A stretch of 64,000 nucleotides of DNA from Yuukianura sp. NJ FZ-2021 (taxonomy: Eukaryota), in NCBI GenBank assembly GCA_046563655.1, contig CM102289.1:10044001-10108000 (forward strand), written 5' to 3'. Of this stretch, positions 6,901 through 46,291 are shown in pieces. A program made the position numbers and the translations under genes. The notes beneath the pieces were generated by a model that was given only the letters and a program-made list of their open reading frames with translations, did no database searches and was not told the DNA's origin. Numbering within the stretch: position 1 is the stretch's first letter; every line of letters begins with the position of its first letter.

Positions 6901-7132
6901 CAGACCTCAGTCCGTGTCTGCAACACAAGGAAGCATCTACTTCAAGCGACGTACAACACTCCCAAGTGATCAGACTCAATTTAGCACTGGACCACAACAC
7001 ATCTCAATCTTACAAACACTAAACAAGTGACAAGTGAAAGTGAAACACTCCACTTCTCAAATTGACAGTCGGAATCTTATGGAACTCGCACTCCAGTTCC
7101 AACTTCGAATCACTTTTCAGAATCAGTCCAAA

Positions 7133-9553
7133 ATGGCAATTCCCTTTTTCGTTGACCCCGAGTATGGCCCACTTCCCCCGCCAGCAGCCCAGCCTGCCCC
7201 ACCGCCAAGGTCACCACAACCCCCTCCGTGGCACGGTGGCAACAATCGTCCCCTTGTCACCATCGATGACAACAACAACCATGTCATCCCTGACTTGGTC
7301 CATGGAGTGGCTACTTTCCCCCACTTGTACTCTCGTCAACAACCAATGAGAAACACAAGTCAAGTGTCAAATTCTGGAAACAGTAGAGAAAGCGTGTCAT
7401 CTTGGCCTTCGTGGCTTCCTCTGGACACTTTGGCCAATTGTCTCTTCAACAATCCACTCTCAACTTTCACCTTCTCTCGAACAGGTCAGTAAAAACAATA
7501 AAAACTACAATAATACAAATACATTTACAATTAATTGTTCTAATCAAAATAAGAGTGGGAAATGACACATTTAGTCCAGTTACGAATTTAAAAGATTAGA
7601 ACAGTAGTGTGTAAGTGTGTTGGTGTAAATTTCCTTGTTACACTGCGCTGTGAGTGCGATTTCCCAACCACAACTTGATTTACAAACATCATCGTGGTCA
7701 CCACAAAACAAAAGGCGCTACAAATCCAATCTTAATCAAATATTAACTTTTCCTTAATACGTTTTTATAGTTCCGTTATACGTTACTTTTTTAAAGTTTG
7801 GAACGAAAAGTTACGTTTGTTTTGAGTTGAAGGACTTTTAAGTCCAATGATCTCAGATGTAAGGTGTGGCGTGAGACAATAAGACACAAATAAGACGTTT
7901 TGGGGTAACTAGGTGTGAATTTACGTCAATTAGGAAATTAGCAAACGACATCAGTGGACAGAAGCTGTGCAAAAGTGCAAATTCTTGAAACATGACTTGT
8001 CATCCACTCCACTCCAACTCTTGCCCTCTTCATTTCATGTGCAAAATCCCGTTTGACTATTGACACTACACTTCAACTTACTCAATCTCCAACTTAATTT
8101 CCATAAACTCCATGCGCTACGCGACAAAACTTGAGTTTTAATTTTTGCACTTTTAATTCTGCTACGTGGACACAAAGGACACACAATACTTTGCATTTCT
8201 GCTTGTGCAAATAACCGCAATTACTCATCCTCACCTAAAAATAGATATTCAACACACAGTAGCCTCCCATTTACCCACTCCAATTCTAATCTCTCCAAAC
8301 TTTAAAACTTACTCTACAAAATTCCAGTGTCCTCGGAGGTCACAGAGGTCATTTGAGAGAACAGTTGCCCGGAAATTAAACTGTTTACTCAAATTCTGGA
8401 AGTTCAAACACCCCGATTTGATGGAAAGTCAAGGAAAAGATTAGCAATTTTCATTTCTTATTGACTCGTGTCAAACTTAATGTCTCAAGGAGGATTTTGG
8501 GATAAGATTTGTCATATTTGTGTTGTGCAGAGAGTAAACAACTTTTAGTCCACTGCCCTAATCTAACAACGTAAATTGTTAATTGAATTTAAATTCCAAG
8601 TTCAAGAGTCCAGGGGTGGTTGACCTCAGAAGTCAAAATAAGTGTCACAAACAACAAATGACCTAATGTCTTCTTTTCATTTTCAGAACAAAACGAGAGT
8701 CCAAGGGAAGATGGACTGCCAGACGTCGTTCAATGCCACTCTGGCTTCTCCTTTGACCTGTCTTTCCAGTCAACCCGCGTCTATGCCTCACGACCACCCA
8801 CCTCCAGCACGTCGCCAGACGAACAACACACTCCCAGGCGACGACGTCGCCACCCCGCTGGAGCTGTGCAGCCTCAGGATGGTCGCCACCCTGTGCCGCT
8901 CAATCAGGAGCTCATTTACAACGCAGATGACATGGACGAGTGGAATCTAGAACTCAAAGTGGCCGTCAACTCTTGGAAAGCAGTCGGAGCAGATTTAAGA
9001 GACGTAGGAGACCAATATGCATTTGAATTCGAGGTGAGACATTTTTAAACATTTCAAAAAAAACTTTACAAATTTTAAAAAGTAGTGTGAATCATAGCGT
9101 TGAAGGAGGGAGGGAGTGATTTAGAGTTAACGATACGAGGTGTTGATGGCCACTTTCTAATTACACTTTTTAAAAAGCATATTCTTAGAAATAAAAAATG
9201 AAGCGGCATTAAAGTTCACGTAATGTTCAGGGGAGATGGAAATTAGACTTTTTTTGAAATTGAAGTTGAAGATGCTGTTAGATGCAGACATTAATTTTGG
9301 TTTTATGATCCAAGTGGGAAGACTTCTTTTGTGTTTAATAACTTTCAAAATACAAAAGAAATCTCACACCCTTTTATGAAAAAAAAACTAAAGCAGCGTT
9401 TTTTTTATTGTTTCACAGAGCTCACTCCAGCGTCAGCGATCTCCGAGGCAAGAATCTTTCAAAGTTCAATGCGGTTTCAAAATGGCGATGCTGCCAGCAC
9501 TGGCCTTGGTGGGTGTTGCCACTGGACTGGCCTATCTACGACGTCGCTTATGA
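7133..9553 (+). CDS. Putative BH3-only protein with C-terminal tail anchor, ~277 aa (exons 7133-7484, 8687-9033, 9419-9553)
   Basis: Three exons join in phase (1, then 0) via GTCAGT..TTTCAG and GTGAGA..TCACAG; Pro/Ser-rich N-terminus; WKAVGADLRDVGDQYAFEF BH3-like motif (8983-9018); ends MAMLPALALVGVATGLAYLRRRL-stop. Confidence 0.75.
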
Positions 9554-11006
9554 AAAAGCGACATTTCCAGCATGCGACATTTACGACATTTCAACATTGG
9601 TCCTTGACAAGATCCACCGAAGAGTCATTCAACTGCTGACGTCCTTGTCCGGTTGTGTCTCCAACCCCACAAGAATCCGAACTTATTCAACTGTGTATCA
9701 ATTCGTACTTTAATTTAGTCATTTTTAGTTGAGTTTTCCTCTTTTTTCCTCTTTTTTGTTCACTCAAAGTGTGATCTCAACTTTAAGATCATGCTCCTAA
9801 GCACCTAACGTTAAACTTTAGTTTTCTCAAAGTGGAATTCACAACTCCACTTCTAAATAGGTCACACAATTATTTATTTCAAGTTTCTATTTATATTTGT
9901 TAGTTTAGAATCATCAAAAGTTTACAATTCCGTTTTCGGATCAAAATGTGTTTGGCAAAGTTAAAACTTGGTTTCGTGATTTTTTGAATTGTTAATGATC
10001 TCGGTTGATCTTTCCTTTCAGTAGATTTCCCTAGTCAAACATTTTTTCATTTCGTGTTTTCTGAAAATTTTCAAAGTTTGGACATTGAACTCAGTTTTCA
10101 GAAAGAAATCAATTTCTAAACCATTTGAATTGGGGACCCTGACAAGGTGCCTTTTGCTTACCAACTTCCAGTTATTTTCAAAATTATTCACTTTATGAAA
10201 AGGATTTTCCGTTTTTTAAATTCTCAAATTTCCTAAATTTGCCCACCCAATTGTCTTTCAAAATAAGAAATTATGTAATGATTGTAAAGATGACTTCATT
10301 TGGAACCACAACTCTTTCAAATGAGGCCTAACTTAACCTACCGACCAAAAGAAATTGAGTGGACTCAATAATTTATAGTTTTTACACTCCTTTTGTACAA
10401 TTCCTTCTCTCATAGTCGTAATTTGTAGTACTTTTAGTTAGTTGTGTACAGTTAATTGTAAAATAGTTATTTTTGGAAGTAGGAAAGTGGAGACTTCATT
10501 GGCAGAAGACATGCATTTTATTTTGGACAAAAGTTGTGCTCAGTTTATGTTATGTTTGTTGTACTTTGAAGAGATCCAACACAAGGCCCAACACGTCTTT
10601 CAAAACCATACTGTACATGCATATTTAATAGCAATTAGTTAAATTAAACTTGCCATAAATCAAAAGTAATAATATTGTCTTTCTAGTTTATTTTTTACTA
10701 ATTTAATTACTCAACTGTAAAAATCCAGATTGTTCTGCAGAGGAATCAAAAATAAAAGAGCCTTATCATCAGCAAACCTCAGTCGTCTTACTTGCTTTCA
10801 TTCTTTTTTTAGTCATACCAAAAACTTCAAATTTTCATAAATTCTTAAAAAATTCCATATTTGGGTTAGTGTTACCAAAATGTTAAAAAGTAGGTTATTG
10901 TTCCAAAGAGTAAGAAAGTTCTTAAGGTGGTTTTCTTGTCCAGGGAGTGAGAAAGTAAGAAGTGAAAGTGGGTAGTTTGGAGTGTAGTCAATGTGTTTTT
11001 TGAAGG

Positions 11007-11823: not shown

Positions 11824-14800
11824 ACAGAGGAGCAAAAAAAAACGGAGGGGTTGGTGGAGGAATCATTGCGTAAAACGCACCGAAAGTTATAGTGCCGTTT
11901 CTACATTTCAACTTCCCGACTTCAAACTTTCCCTCTCCAGGCGACATCTACTACTTCTGAATCCAAACTCAATTTCACCCCCTTTCCTCTTTCAACTGAA
12001 GTTGAAAGTTTCAAATGTCTCTGTGAACGAAGATTCACTTTTAACATAGTTAAAATTATAAACTAATTTGAAATTGTTTCAACAATTGCTGAATTTCAAC
12101 AATTGGGAGAACTGAGGTGATTTTTCGGATAGACATTTGAGCATTATTAGTCATCGTGAAGAGAAACGGGAGCAAGTGTAACAAAAGCAAGTGGCGTTTT
12201 TGTAAGTTTGGGAGCCCTTGAACGTTTTTTTGTTGAAAAAGTAAAATGAAAAGGGTAAACTGTTCTTTTTTTGTGGGGTGTTGAGGTAGTATCAGTTTTT
12301 ACTTTTGAGTTTAGAATTGTAGTGGAGAATAATTACTGTTGTTGGGTAGCAACCAGTCTCTCAGTCTCCCTTTGTTACGATTTGGTCCAAAGGAGAAACG
12401 TTTGAAGGTGTTTAGGATTGATGAGCATTGTGTCAATTTCCTGTTGGTCCTTGGGCCCTTGAGGGCTCACTTTTAGGTGAAGGGCCATAAAACCCAAGGG
12501 TCAGAACATGCAGAGGAGAGTGTAGCAAGTGCATAGGTCAGTGGAAGATTTGAAGAAAAGCATCTCAAGATGCAGAAATGGAGAGAAGATGAAGTTGAGA
12601 GAGGGGGTGAAAGAGCGTCTCTCCCTCCCCACTCTTCTCCAGACTGCCTGGCGTCAAACTCCAACCAACAACAAATGAAATTCAATCCTCAACAGTTCTA
12701 CTTTGCCACTCCGAAATATTTCTAATCTTATTCGTAAGTTCAACATAGACAACTTTATGATTACTCTGCATTTTCATAATTTCATAACGCAAATAATAAT
12801 TCGTATTAAAAAAAGTCGAGAAAAATGAAAAGAGCAAGGACCTAGTGGGAGCTTCTACGACGCAATTGTCGCGATTTCTCAACGTTTTGCTTAACCTTTG
12901 ACCTCAGTTAGACTGTGATGCGGGGCTCCTGTTGATTTTATTGCAATTTAATCAAACGGCGCAGAATATTAAGTTTCCGAATGCAGGCATGAGTCTGTCG
13001 TAAAATAATTTTATGAAGTGCCACTTTCAATCTTCATCATGACATTCGACCTCAGCAATTTCACTACGAACAGTTAACTTTAACTGTACTTTTAGAAGGA
13101 GTCCAGTGCCAACATGTGCTTCATCACTCATCGTAAACTGTCATTCGAAAGCAATAAAACCAGAAATTAATTAGTAACTTTGGCACAAGTAGGCCATCCG
13201 AGCAGCATTTAGACAACAACAGAGCAATTACAGGGACAATGATCTCATCACAACAAATCAAACACAACTAAACAATTAACCAGTGGAAAATTATACAAAA
13301 CATTTTTACATTTGTTGTTGACACAAAAAGAGAGGAAATTTTGGTGAAAAGGAGGAAGAGTTTGGATGAACGTTTTGGCAAAGGAGGTAATCGTTTGTAT
13401 GTGATATTTAATTTAGACGAAACCACAAATTGAGTTAAGACGGAGTACAAAATAAATAACATACACAAGATTCAGGAGTTGAAGTTCAGTCACCTCCGAA
13501 AGTTTTTAATTTTTGAACATTGGTATAGATAAATAGCGCAGTTTGAGGCACAAAGGTGCGTAGTTTGTTTACCCCAACTTAATTGTGACCTCGTGCTAAA
13601 AACCACAAGCTACGTCTTTCATTTTGAGCGGGGAGTACAACGGTCAATGTCAAGTGGGGATCCGGTGTCAACTTCCTACAGTTTCTTTTTTGGAAGAAAT
13701 TACGCAGCGGGGGTTGCACAAACAAAGTTCACTTTTCAAAAAATGAATTTAGCGTCTTGGAACGAGGGTCAATGATTTACAACGTTCAAGGCAATTCCGA
13801 ATTGCGTTTAAATTAGTTTTCAAAGGGGCGCAAATTGTGCAAATTTTCTCCACCCACACAGCCAATCTTTCACGGTTTGTAAAAAGTGCTTTCACAAAGT
13901 GAACATTTGTTATGCGCAATTACTGCGATGTCCCCTCAACCGGAAAACAAATTGCTCCAAAGTCCATGTGACTCAAAGTCATGCTAGAACGCAGATTTTT
14001 AAATTTTTAATTCCTGGACCACTCACCGCAAAACATAAAAATTTGAAGCGACGGAAATATTTGCGGAAATTGATCGCGCACTTCCTTGGTTGAATCGTAA
14101 ATCATGTGGAATCTAGAAAGCAAAGTCCATCAGTTCCATTGAACCTTACAAGTCCAATGCGAAAAAAGTAAAAGCAGGAGCCTAATAGTGTGAAAAGTGT
14201 GAAAAAGTGTGGAGGAAGTAAAAGTGCGTGGAGATTCCTTTGATAATTAGGAGTGATTTGAGGTGGCTCATGAATCAAGTGACTTAATCCGTGAATCCTC
14301 GGAGTGGAGATTTATTAGTCTCTAAATCAGGTACTGTGCACGAGGATTCTAATGAAAACTTAACAAAGAAACTTTAATCTTCCCACACACAGGAGCAGTG
14401 ACAGCAGGATGCATCGCTCCTTTTCTTCAAAATCAACCCCCACATCACACAAAACTTAAATTAGTAGAGGAAGATCCTCGGAATTAAAGAAATTGATCAA
14501 CTCGGAGAAAGTTACAAAGAGAAACAAGATTTATCACTTCCGCCCTTCAACAACTTCAATCTTGGAGTAAAACTAAAACTTCATTCTCATTTCCAAAGTT
14601 TCCAAAAATGAAAACAAGAATTCATGTGTCAAACCAGTGTTGGAAAAATTTTGGAGGGTGAAAAAAATAAAAGGGGTTAACTTTTTTTTATGTTTTTGTG
14701 TCACTTTCTCCGTGGCGGTTCTCCAGAATTTATGATTTTAAAATCCAAAGTCTAAAAAGTAAAATGTAGAATTGGATTATTGTTAAAGTTCCATTCCTTT

Positions 14801-26071: not shown

Positions 26072-26356
26072 ATACAGTGGATCTATACTGCTAAGCAGTG
26101 ACTCCTATATGAAAAAGTTAATGGCTATAATCGGTTTTGGACATAAACAGTAAAGTAGGGAGGGGAGGGGGGGGGGGAGGGGGGTTGACCGTCCATCCAT
26201 TGTTGTCCAAGTATTAGTACTTTTCTATGAAGTAAATTAGTAATGTACTATAATGTACTAATAAACTGCCTACAATAGTCATGGTTCACAGTACTTAATC
26301 TATTTTCTAGAACATTCGATTACTATGTATGAAATCAATCATAGACATTTATTACG

Positions 26357-27052
26357 CTAGCGAATCGCCACCCCCGATCTCAGCTGAAATCGACAATTAC
26401 CCTAGCGAATCGCCACCCCCGATCTCAGCTGAAATCGACAATTACCCTAGCGAATCGCCACCCCCCGATCTCAGCTGAAATCGACAATTACCCTAGCGAA
26501 TCGCCACCCCCGATCTCAGCTGAAATCGACAATTACCCTAGCGAATCGCCACCCCCGATCTCAGCTGAAATCGACAATTACCCTAGCGAATCGCCACCCC
26601 CGATCTCAGCTGAAATCGACAATTACCCTGGCGAATCGCCACCCCCGATCTCAGCTGAAATCGACAATTACCCTGGCGAATCGCCACCCCCGATCTCAGC
26701 TGAAATCGACAATTACCCTGGCGAATCGCCACCCCCGATCTCAGCTGAAATCGGCAATTACCCTGGCGAATCGCCATCTCCGATCTCAGCTGAAATCGAC
26801 AATTACCCTGGCGAATCGCCATCCCCGATCTCAGCTGAAATCGACAATTACCCTGGCGAATCGCCACCCCCGATCTCAGCTGAAATCGGCAATTACCCTG
26901 GCGAATCGCCATCCCCGATCTCAGCTGAAATCGACAATTACCCTGGCGAATCGCCATCCCCGATCTCAGCTGAAATCGACAATTACCCTGGCGAATCGCC
27001 ACCCCCGATCTCAGCTGAAATCGACAATTACCCTAGCGAATCGCCACCCCCC
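26357..27052. repeat. 45-bp tandem satellite, 15 full copies plus a partial
   Basis: Unit CT(A/G)GCGAATCGCCA(C/T)CCCCGATCTCAGCTGAAATCG(A/G)CAATTACC. Confidence 0.98.
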
Positions 27053-27203
27053 ATCTAGGCGCGAATTTGACCATTTGAATTGGAGATTAACAAAACTTTA
27101 GTTTGATTTTTAGAGTGTTAAAAACTAATTATGATTAATAACTATTAACTAACTAATTAATAATTATAAACTAATTAATTATAGATAACATCAGTACAAG
27201 CAA

Positions 27204-45169: not shown

Positions 45170-46291
45170 CTACGCACAGCGACATCGTGACACAACGTCC
45201 ACCGTCACTCTCTTGACTTGGAGTCCACAGGTGACGTTGAACTTGAGTTTGCGTGACCTGACTGCCTGGCACTTTGGAATGGAAGTGTAGGGATTCCCCT
45301 CTAAAAAGACATAAGTGCATCCTCCAACACATTCGTGTTTCGGCACTTCGATTCCAGCACATCCAGGCATCTCCAGCACCTCAGTCGACTTGACAAGTTT
45401 GCAACACTCACTTCCGGAAGAGGCGCCACATGGCAGTCGGTGCACTTTGTCTCTCGAAAAAGAAAACTGCGGAGTAATGTTTTTCTCCTCCCGCGCCTCG
45501 TTCTTCTGCAGAGCCAACCACGCCTGCTTTGAAATGTCACTTTTCCGGGGTTTCGGCGGGGCACTTTGGGTGGGACTTGAGTTGGTAGTGACTGGAGCGG
45601 AAGAGGTAGTTGAGACAATGGAGTTCTGCAAAAGGTCATTGACCTCAGAGGTGAAATTGACAAGGTCATTGACCTGAGTGAAATTGACTGGACTAGACAC
45701 TCCACTACTGCCGATGGAAACTCCGAAGTTTAAATGTTTAGTGTAGAAGAGAGTTGCGATGACGAGGATGAGGATGACAAGTAGAAAGGCAGCAGTGACC
45801 TTGAGACATGACCTTGACCTTGGGGGGTCCCTTGATGTGTGGGGGAGGAGGGGGGCCTTGCGTGTCCAATTGAAGTTGGACGACCAATGCGCAGAGTCAC
45901 TGTCAACATCCACCACACTCGTCAAGTAGTTGTTGTTGTCCGCTACAACCATGGAATCACGCAGTACTACTGGACCAGTACTCTCCTTTCTAACGATCTG
46001 CAACACAAAGATATCATTAGGAATTTAACATAAACTTTCTTACTTCTTGGAAAATCAAGAAAAAGAAAAGGACGAAAACTGGACAAAAGATTTAAATCCT
46101 CATAAATTCTTCGTTTAAATGTCAATTTCCTTTTAAAGTTTTCCTAATCCCACTTCCACTTTACAATCACTACAATGGAGGAAGGAAATGAATGAAGTTT
46201 GGAATTTTTGAAACCTAGGTATTTTGAAGAATAAGATTTGAAAATGGAAGAAAGTAATTGTAAAATGAAAAGTACCCACCTGGGACTGCAT
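45170..46291 (-). CDS. Type II membrane protein with Ser/Thr-rich stalk and C-terminal cystine-knot (exons 46291-46280, 45997-45170; start tentative)
   Basis: TM VTAAFLLVILILVIATLFY; C-terminal CC...PGC...CVGGC...C...C...CRC pattern of DAN/glycoprotein-hormone-type knots. Confidence 0.75.

Follow-up and report, generated by a model that had tools for sequence, protein, structure and literature searches.

The locus described here lies on the + strand of a 64,000-nucleotide stretch of contig CM102289.1 (assembly GCA_046563655.1, Yuukianura sp. NJ FZ-2021; the whole stretch is called the window below). Three coding exons, at 7133-7484, 8687-9033 and 9419-9553, make up a gene for a protein of 277 residues, which the original prediction had presented as a candidate canonical BH3-only protein. 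The exons were read directly from the sequence. Exon 1 opens with the ATG at 7133, comprises 117 codons and one base, and ends at the donor CAG/GTCAGT; intron 1 (7485-8686, 1202 nucleotides, phase 1) closes with the acceptor ttttcag/AAC before 8687. Exon 2, which encodes the protein's middle region, ends at the donor GAG/GTGAGA, and intron 2 (9034-9418, 385 nucleotides, phase 0) closes with the acceptor tttcacag/AGC before 9419. Exon 3 contributes 44 codons followed by the TGA stop codon at 9551-9553. Both introns are of the GT-AG type, and the exons (352 + 347 + 135 = 834 nucleotides) join in phase into 277 codons plus the stop codon, in agreement with the predicted length of about 277 residues. 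The translation of exon 2 ends with WKAVGADLRDVGDQYAFEF and that of exon 3 with AMLPALALVGVATGLAYLRRRL. The product is rich in proline (11.9%) and serine (9.4%), another feature that had been correctly noted. The last exon had been reported as missing from the list of open reading frames (ORFs); its frame corresponds to a stop-to-stop ORF of 53 residues, which escapes the list because it falls under the usual cut-off of 60 residues.

We judged the reality of this gene by comparing it with relatives, namely proteins and two metagenome contigs, L001 and L002. When the exon-2 peptide was used in an exhaustive HMMER search, seven proteins were obtained at E ≤ 0.001. Five of these were clear relatives (P0004, with an E-value of 5.6e-24, P0005, P0006, P0007 and P0010), while the other two were P0008, which resembles a low-complexity repeat, and P0009, a protein of 3874 residues for which the search gave no matched stretch. 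A profile search added two relatives, P0011 and P0012. The latter, a 242-residue 'unnamed protein product' annotated in Allacma fusca (Collembola, Symphypleona), is the only named relative. It is full-length, and shares with the window protein a start (M-A-I-P-Y-Y), the middle blocks and a hydrophobic, Arg-capped end; it is the splice product proposed by an annotation pipeline in another species. Only springtail-type relatives, and no annotated insect protein, were found in the profile searches, and none of the 213 candidates examined in a word-index search for longer proteins contained exon 2.

The two metagenome contigs, which were recovered with P0004 as query, carry the same gene structure. 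L001 has exon 1 at 1064-1451, with its ATG at 1064 and a phase-1 donor (GGG/GTAAGT) after 1451, and the acceptor of its exon 2 (tgtag/) before 2795. L002 contains the end of exon 2, an intron of 428 nucleotides and exon 3 at 730-864, in the same frame as in the window. The composite product of both contigs is 286 residues long. All six ORF-type relatives (P0004-P0007, P0010 and P0011) continue with Glu-Val-Arg past the end of the BH3-like block described below. This is the translation of an unspliced GTxxGx donor, indicating that the last intron occupies one shared codon position in all six. In the window, intron 2 sits immediately after the Glu that closes this block, and the annotated Allacma protein passes into its tail segment at exactly the same position. 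No significant local similarity was found between intron 1 and the corresponding intron of L001.

Selection was assessed on 271 aligned codons of the window and L001/L002. Amino-acid identity was 0.53, and the differences were far more frequent at synonymous sites (pS 0.76, i.e. saturated) than at non-synonymous ones (pN 0.32). The dN/dS ratio amounted to 0.16 for exon 2 (versus L001) and 0.17 for exon 3 (versus L002, with an amino-acid identity of 0.64). Both the BH3-like block and the tail are kept in the relatives. Conservation peaks at the very beginning of the protein, the first 15 codons showing an amino-acid identity of 0.93, with pN 0.029 and pS 0.77. Mismatches at the first, second and third codon positions numbered 1/0/8 in these 15 codons, 10/6/18 in the last 33 codons of exon 2 and 12/9/21 in exon 3. 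This concentration at third positions shows that purifying selection acts on the gene and that both it and its exon structure are real. The notion that the locus is not a gene as modelled, but a set of chance ORFs or of exons from different transcripts, deserves hardly any credence since independent contigs and an annotated protein keep all three exons in the same order, with the same frames and intron phases, and since the substitutions are of the coding type. We conclude that this is a real, selectively maintained three-exon hexapod gene. The comparisons by themselves point to a springtail as its probable source, or to some other early-branching hexapod, given that the only named relative is collembolan and that no annotated insect protein was matched.

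Directly after the initiator Met, the protein carries the sequence Ala-Ile-Pro-Phe (7136-7147), which corresponds to a binding motif for inhibitor of apoptosis proteins (IAPs). This IAP-binding motif (IBM), with the consensus A-[KTVI]-[PAE]-[FEISY], has been termed 'RHG homology-defining' (PMC8620624), RHG standing for the Reaper/Hid/Grim family. The consensus is present in all three N-termini that are known: the protein starts with Met-Ala-Ile-Pro-Phe-Phe in the window, Met-Ala-Ile-Ala-Phe-Phe in L001 and Met-Ala-Ile-Pro-Tyr-Tyr in the Allacma protein, giving A-I-P-F, A-I-A-F and A-I-P-Y, respectively. Among the 1970 Met codons in the six frames of the window, the one at 7133 is the only one followed by the strict pattern. 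No other ORF of the window begins with a strict IBM, as might have been seen for a second RHG-type gene in a cluster like that of the fly.

The ATG at 7133 is preceded by a conserved leader of 54 nucleotides (7079-7132), which opens with an in-frame upstream ATG. The leader of L001 (1010-1063) has its own in-frame upstream ATG at identical spacing, 18 codons away from the main one. Mismatches between the two leaders were distributed as 11/5/5 over the codon positions, which is not coding-like, and position -3 is a T for the ATG at 7079 and an A, i.e. a good context, for the ATG at 7133. Since coding-type conservation begins exactly at 7133, selection on the protein starts there, leaving Ala2 at the N-terminus, and the leader is probably a 5' untranslated region (UTR) rather than coding sequence. 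Its upstream ATG could be a translational control feature. At the other end of exon 1, retention of intron 1 would lead to a stop two codons further on (7485-7492) and hence to a predicted protein of 119 residues with the IBM, but without the BH3-like block or the tail. This form resembles the 'run-off' short isoform that has been described for lepidopteran RHG genes (PMC8620624).

At the opposite end of the protein, exon 3 encodes a putative tail anchor (9482-9550), made up of the hydrophobic segment MAMLPALALVGVATGLAYL followed by the C-terminal residues RRRL. The highest Kyte-Doolittle mean over 19 residues in the product is 1.88, at residue 255, and this is the only strongly hydrophobic part of the protein. 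The equivalent segment of the Allacma protein is predicted by AlphaFold2 to form a helix (226-241), and the pattern P-x-L-A-x-V-G..G-x-A-[YW]-L-R-R is kept in all three full-length sequences. The hydrophobic C-terminal stretch with a basic cap, as originally described, is therefore borne out by both hydropathy and conservation.

The third element of interest is a BH3-like helix block, WKAVGADLRDVGDQYAFEFE, at 8974-9033, with a 12-residue core, VGADLRDVGDQY, at 8983-9018; it is the BH3-like string quoted in the original prediction and is indeed found in the translation of exon 2. The BH3 motif is defined as hydrophobic-small-x-x-Leu-x-x-hydrophobic-Gly/Ala/Ser-Asp-x-hydrophobic, with L-x3-[GAS]-D as its minimal form (PMC10107002), and the core (V-G-A-D-L-R-D-V-G-D-Q-Y) fits this pattern. 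The 12-residue pattern occurs once in the 127,996 residues of the six-frame translation of the window, in which the minimal form occurs 62 times, and it was matched in 429 of 200,000 shuffles of the product. Such a frequency, taken alone, would leave dozens of chance matches per proteome; comparison with relatives provides the decisive support. In an alignment of eight sequences, the Trp, the small Gly, the Leu, the Arg, the Asp and the final Glu are invariant, and the residue two positions after the Asp is always hydrophobic. The expectation that Leu and the Gly-Asp pair would be kept in the relatives thus held for Leu and Asp, whereas the Gly, present before the Asp in two of the eight sequences, is replaced by Ala in the other six. 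The first hydrophobic position is the weak point of the assignment to BH3, as it is occupied by Val in 2/8, Ala in 5/8 and Thr in 1/8.

These features raise the possibility that the protein is a canonical BH3-only sensor like BIM, BMF, PUMA or EGL-1, which would act solely by inserting its BH3 segment in grooves of Bcl-2-family proteins and in which the N-terminal IBM would be functionless. The core with its invariant Leu and Asp, and with Gly or Ala before the latter, is in line with this proposal, as are the disordered context and the presence of a tail anchor one exon downstream. Likeness to known BH3 segments was also apparent when a 33-position profile of the block was compared with 177,635 distinct PDB sequences at E ≤ 10. 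Of the 23 matches, 21 were short BH3-type chains (14 from BIM, 2 from PUMA, 3 from BAD, a foldamer and a chain of 21 residues with the label Bcl-2-like protein 2), the remaining two, a synaptotagmin and a chitinase, being unrelated. The best matches were BIM, PUMA and BAD peptides; the E-values were 0.13-0.63, each of them non-significant, and none of the 23 matches was better than 0.13. As the PDB is, in addition, rich in BH3 peptides, this result indicates a likeness at the level of the motif rather than homology. The full-length profile gave no match with PDB sequences at E ≤ 10.

A similar picture emerged from the ESM Atlas, where scores below 0.9 were taken as leads only. The closest clusters to the Allacma protein were arthropod 'hypothetical protein' clusters (0.91 and 0.89), followed by PUMA (0.83), BMF (0.82) and BIM (0.81). 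With exon 2 of the window, the named clusters were BMF (0.88, 0.87 and 0.84), a BAK fragment (0.83), PUMA (0.81) and BIM (0.79). Taking both queries together, language-model similarity to the BIM, BMF and PUMA families spanned 0.76-0.88. The Pfam models for BIM, BMF and PUMA (PF06773, PF08945, PF15185 and PF15826) matched neither the three exons nor the eight relatives at E ≤ 10. More generally, no Pfam family was matched by the three exons at this threshold, and the eight relatives matched only low-complexity noise (TFIIA, NOA36 and similar, with E-values of 0.05-2.2). Pfam detected no Bcl-2 fold or other BH domain in the exons or the eight relatives.

The proposal of a pure BH3-only sensor meets several difficulties beyond the non-significant E-values, the Atlas scores below 0.9 and the absence of a Pfam match. 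Six of the eight sequences have Ala or Thr at the first hydrophobic position. The conservation of the N-terminal 15 residues, which exceeds that of any other part of the protein, would be hard to explain if they were functionless. To our knowledge, an N-terminal IBM is not known from the BIM, BMF or PUMA families. Compared with these tail-anchored proteins of vertebrates, the window protein shares a disordered character, a BH3-patterned amphipathic helix and a hydrophobic C-terminal segment encoded by the following exon, but differs by its N-terminal IBM, by the lack of a match at E ≤ 10 to the Pfam models Bim_N, Bclx_interact, BMF or PUMA, and by the weak first hydrophobic position in most relatives. 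Our literature search found no arthropod or springtail BH3-only protein of this kind, though some of its queries were ill-framed. Taken together, we regard a protein acting only through its BH3 segment as quite unlikely.

Predicted structures also bear on this point. AlphaFold2 models were obtained for the Allacma protein (mean predicted local distance difference test score, pLDDT, 45.8) and for the translation of exon 2 of the window (P0002; mean pLDDT 53.0), and neither displayed a confident fold. A helix is predicted exactly on the BH3-like block, at 184-198 of the Allacma protein and 96-109 of the exon 2 translation, where it is the best-scoring part of the model. The block is preceded by a conserved amphipathic block, EWNLELKVAVN (8938-8970), with an invariant Trp and an invariant Val, which corresponds to a strand at 84-93 of the exon 2 translation. 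Both models pair, with low confidence, the blocks …G-F-S-F-D-L-S-F… and …W-N-L-E-L-K-V-A-V… as strands, in which the hydrophobic residues alternate. If this pairing is real, the helix would belong to a small module and would not be a free linear motif, another argument against a classical BH3-only protein. The first of these two blocks, LPDVVQCHSGFSFDLSF (8716-8766), contains Pro, Asp, His and Gly residues that are invariant in all eight sequences and is predicted as a strand, with low confidence, in both models. This PD..QCH.G.S.D block matched no known motif.

The IBM, the disordered middle region and the hydrophobic C-terminus invite a comparison with the RHG family. In a study that identified new, non-dipteran members, the ancestral RHG form was concluded to be hid-like, with an IBM at the start and a length of less than 300 residues (Friedrich 2021, PMC8620624). 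The ORF of hid-like genes is mostly divided among three exons, of which the terminal ones are small, and its last splice site is conserved, as is the hydrophobic C-terminus, for which the published signature is a terminal Arg plus Gly-Trp 5-7 residues from the end (PMC8620624). The proteins considered here are all shorter than 300 residues (277 for the window, 286 for the L001 and L002 composite and 242 for Allacma). The ORF of the window gene lies on three exons with small terminal ones, and the position of its last intron is kept in all relatives seen. The likeness to Hid and hid-like proteins of neopteran insects (PMC8620624) thus extends to the IBM after the Met, the length below 300 residues (that of the non-dipteran members), the three exons, the disordered and fast-evolving middle part and the hydrophobic, basic-ended C-terminus. 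In contrast to them, the window gene belongs to a lineage in which that study found no members (Collembola for the named relative and probably also for the window), its C-terminus is of the type G-x-A-[YW]-L-R-R-[RH]-(L) instead of Gly-Trp with a terminal Arg, and it carries a BH3-patterned helix and the PD..QCH.G.S.D block, neither of which is mentioned in that paper. Were the source a neopteran insect, the Hid-like part would belong to an already known family, and the novelty would lie in the conserved BH3-patterned helix. As a separate observation, the two ESM Atlas clusters closest to the Allacma protein, both of arthropod 'hypothetical proteins', comprise 61 and 119 members of 246-247 residues. 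This is close to the average lengths given for hymenopteran and dictyopteran hid-like proteins (PMC8620624), and these clusters may represent the insect hid-like family or further relatives.

On balance, we consider it probable that the gene encodes a Hid-type, largely disordered, tail-anchored pro-apoptotic protein of 277 residues that also contains a BH3-patterned helix. The original prediction, which read the protein as BIM/PUMA/EGL-1-like and contrasted it with Reaper, Hid and Grim, was right about the gene model, the BH3-like motif, the conservation and the tail; it overlooked the N-terminal IBM, which, with the tail anchor and the three exons, gives the protein the architecture of Hid and makes a Hid-like protein the better fit.

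Several observations weigh against this conclusion. The IBM is a short motif, and its loose consensus is found after two of the 1970 Met codons, the second one being located inside a carboxylesterase exon. The in-frame upstream ATG is present in both species and, if used, would bury the IBM. The tails (G-L-A-Y-L-R-R-R-L in the window, G-V-A-Y-L-R-R-H-L in L002 and G-I-A-W-L-R-R-H in Allacma) have an aromatic residue 5-6 residues from the end and an Arg-Arg pair, but neither the adjacent Gly-Trp nor the terminal Arg of the published signature. Searches for RHG genes in Paleoptera, apterygote Hexapoda, crustaceans and other invertebrates gave no homologue, and the family was concluded to be probably restricted to Neoptera (PMC8620624); we found no later extension of RHG genes outside Neoptera in the literature. 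No Pfam model matched the exons of the window or the relatives as RHG. Finally, since the insect RHG proteins were compared through their published architecture and not through their sequence, homology to hid is inferred from architecture and short motifs.

The shortness of the motifs also leaves room for a membrane protein that has a tail anchor but an unrelated role, such as that of an organelle adaptor. Its IBM-like start and its BH3-like block would then resemble short linear motifs by chance. The abundance of the minimal BH3 form in the window fits with this explanation, and neither family models nor solved structures nor a named relative point to a function, the only named relative being an 'unnamed protein product'. 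Yet a strict IBM, a strict BH3 pattern and a basic-capped tail occur together in one protein and each is kept across relatives whose identity goes down to 27-28%; the first two are found just once each in the window, and the combination matches the published architecture of a family. A coincidence of this kind therefore appears improbable.

If the protein is Hid-like, its mode of action could be as follows. The initiator Met would be removed and the N-terminal Ala-Ile-Pro-Phe would dock into the BIR domains of an IAP. The C-terminal hydrophobic segment and its Arg-rich end would insert the protein into the outer mitochondrial membrane, where IAPs would be sequestered or inactivated, freeing caspases from inhibition. 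The C-terminal segment of Hid anchors this protein in the outer mitochondrial membrane and brings DIAP1, XIAP and Reaper there (PMC3101595 and PMC13217685). The BH3-patterned helix, which immediately precedes the tail exon, most likely offers a second protein-binding surface, which could serve the groove of a Bcl-2-family protein or, in the manner of GH3 in Reaper and Grim or of helix 2 in Hid, other RHG proteins or IAPs. IAP binding, mitochondrial targeting, killing and any binding to Bcl-2 proteins are all suggested by motifs and architecture.

The last two options merit a closer comparison. Hid is said to lack GH3, and AlphaFold3 models place helix 2 of Hid (302-320) against the RING domain of DIAP1 and the GH3 of Reaper and Sickle (PMC13217685). 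According to the same text, the GH3 of Reaper spans residues 32-46, with Trp32, Leu35, Val38, Gln45 and Tyr46 as key residues (PMC13217685). The block of the window protein (W-x2-V-x9-Q-Y) resembles this GH3/Trp-block of Reaper, Grim and Sickle, likewise a central amphipathic helix opening with Trp, in that its Trp is followed at +3 by an aliphatic residue and at +13/+14 by Gln-Tyr, as spaced in Reaper. It differs by an Asp instead of Val at position +6 and by its Gly-Asp pair, which is not listed for GH3; since only the listed residues were compared, this likeness is a lead. We found no link between GH3 and BH3 in the literature. Helix 2 of Drosophila Hid presumably starts with a Gly-Asp-x-Tyr stretch; if so, the BH3-like block would be a feature of the family.

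Another arthropod protein, Sayonara (CG14044), has been proposed to bear a BH3 on the basis of a short motif, and in this respect resembles the window protein. Sayonara is a Drosophila coiled-coil protein of family PTHR21974 in which BH3 arose within Diptera (PMC10107002). Its architecture is unrelated to that of the window protein, and neither an IBM nor a tail anchor is mentioned in the available part of that source, where the word 'transmembrane' has 0 occurrences.

These comparisons lend themselves to a wider evolutionary scenario, which we put forward as speculative and rather doubtful. The ancestral hexapod death trigger might have been a single tail-anchored protein with both a BH3 segment directed at Bcl-2 and an IBM directed at IAPs, RHG genes having arisen from a BIM/BMF-like gene that gained an IBM. 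Springtails would then have kept the dual form, while the GH3/Trp-block and helix 2 of Hid would be degenerate BH3 segments.

Conservation in and around the gene is not limited to coding sequence. Intron 2 contains two short elements that are nearly identical to L002 despite the saturation of synonymous sites in the flanking exons. The first (9125-9144) shares 19 of 20 bases with L002 (about 405-425) and the second (9281-9310) 28 of 30 bases (572-601), the latter lying within a blastn block (9266-9346) of 78% identity. As judged by eye, their in-frame translation is not kept in a coding manner, and each may be an element that controls splicing or transcription, or else a small alternative exon. 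Downstream of the stop codon, a conserved block in the presumed 3' UTR (9676-9758) shows 78% identity over 83 nucleotides with L002 (1019-1095). More blocks matching L002 with 75-83% identity follow in the same order, at 10113-10153, 10342-10392, 10557-10619 and 12423-12492. No AATAAA or ATTAAA signal was found before 10643, and these blocks would belong either to a conserved 3' UTR of about 1.1 kb or to other conserved elements downstream of the stop codon.

Two further observations concern this region. First, the presumed 3' UTR contains two heptamers complementary to what we take to be the seed of the microRNA bantam, one of them as part of an 8-mer-type site (9772-9779) and the other at 9996-10002; L002 has one (1398-1404), and only six are present on the + strand of the 64-kb window. 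Bantam has been reported to repress hid in Drosophila, and these sites would be a weak but suggestive regulatory parallel. Second, the - strand at 10052-10215 matches the Rfam model of nuclear RNase P RNA below threshold (22.4 bits, for a gathering score of 28). The match covers positions 78-280 of the 301 of the model, with an E-value of 1.4e-4 in a search of 801 nucleotides, and shares part of its span with one of the conserved blocks downstream of the stop codon; L002 gave no match of this kind.

The genes in the neighbourhood encode filamin repeats (near 18.2 kb), an FAD monooxygenase (20.7-22.2 kb), ORC2 (28.6-29.1 kb) and a carboxylesterase (31.2-33.4 kb). Of the 39 ORFs with 120 residues or more, 18 large ones were scanned, and no Bcl-2 or BIR domain was found in them. 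The window also contains a long tandem repeat (26345-27101) that is open in three frames, with units such as ...PPISAEIDNYP.ES..., and, on the - strand at 45170-46024, an ORF of 284 residues that includes a hydrophobic segment and whose C-terminal part, rich in Cys, resembles by eye a cystine-knot-type module. The latter gave no Pfam match at E ≤ 0.001.

Programmed cell death is classically initiated by BH3-only proteins acting on Bcl-2 proteins in vertebrates and nematodes, and by Reaper, Hid and Grim acting on IAPs in insects. One paper even confines BH3-only proteins to vertebrates and RHG proteins to insects. The gene described here appears to have a Hid-like architecture outside the published range of the family, with a conserved BH3-patterned helix as a new element; a single protein would thus join, through its IBM and its BH3-like helix, two families of death triggers that are usually held apart. 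The presence of this helix in the same protein, next to the tail anchor, makes a historical or mechanistic link between the two classes of initiators directly testable, and laboratory cultures can be kept of springtails such as Folsomia and Orchesella. If the gene is indeed of the Hid type, it would provide a new stepping stone for 'taxon hopping' searches toward crustaceans and would mean that the RHG family arose at the base of Hexapoda or even before.

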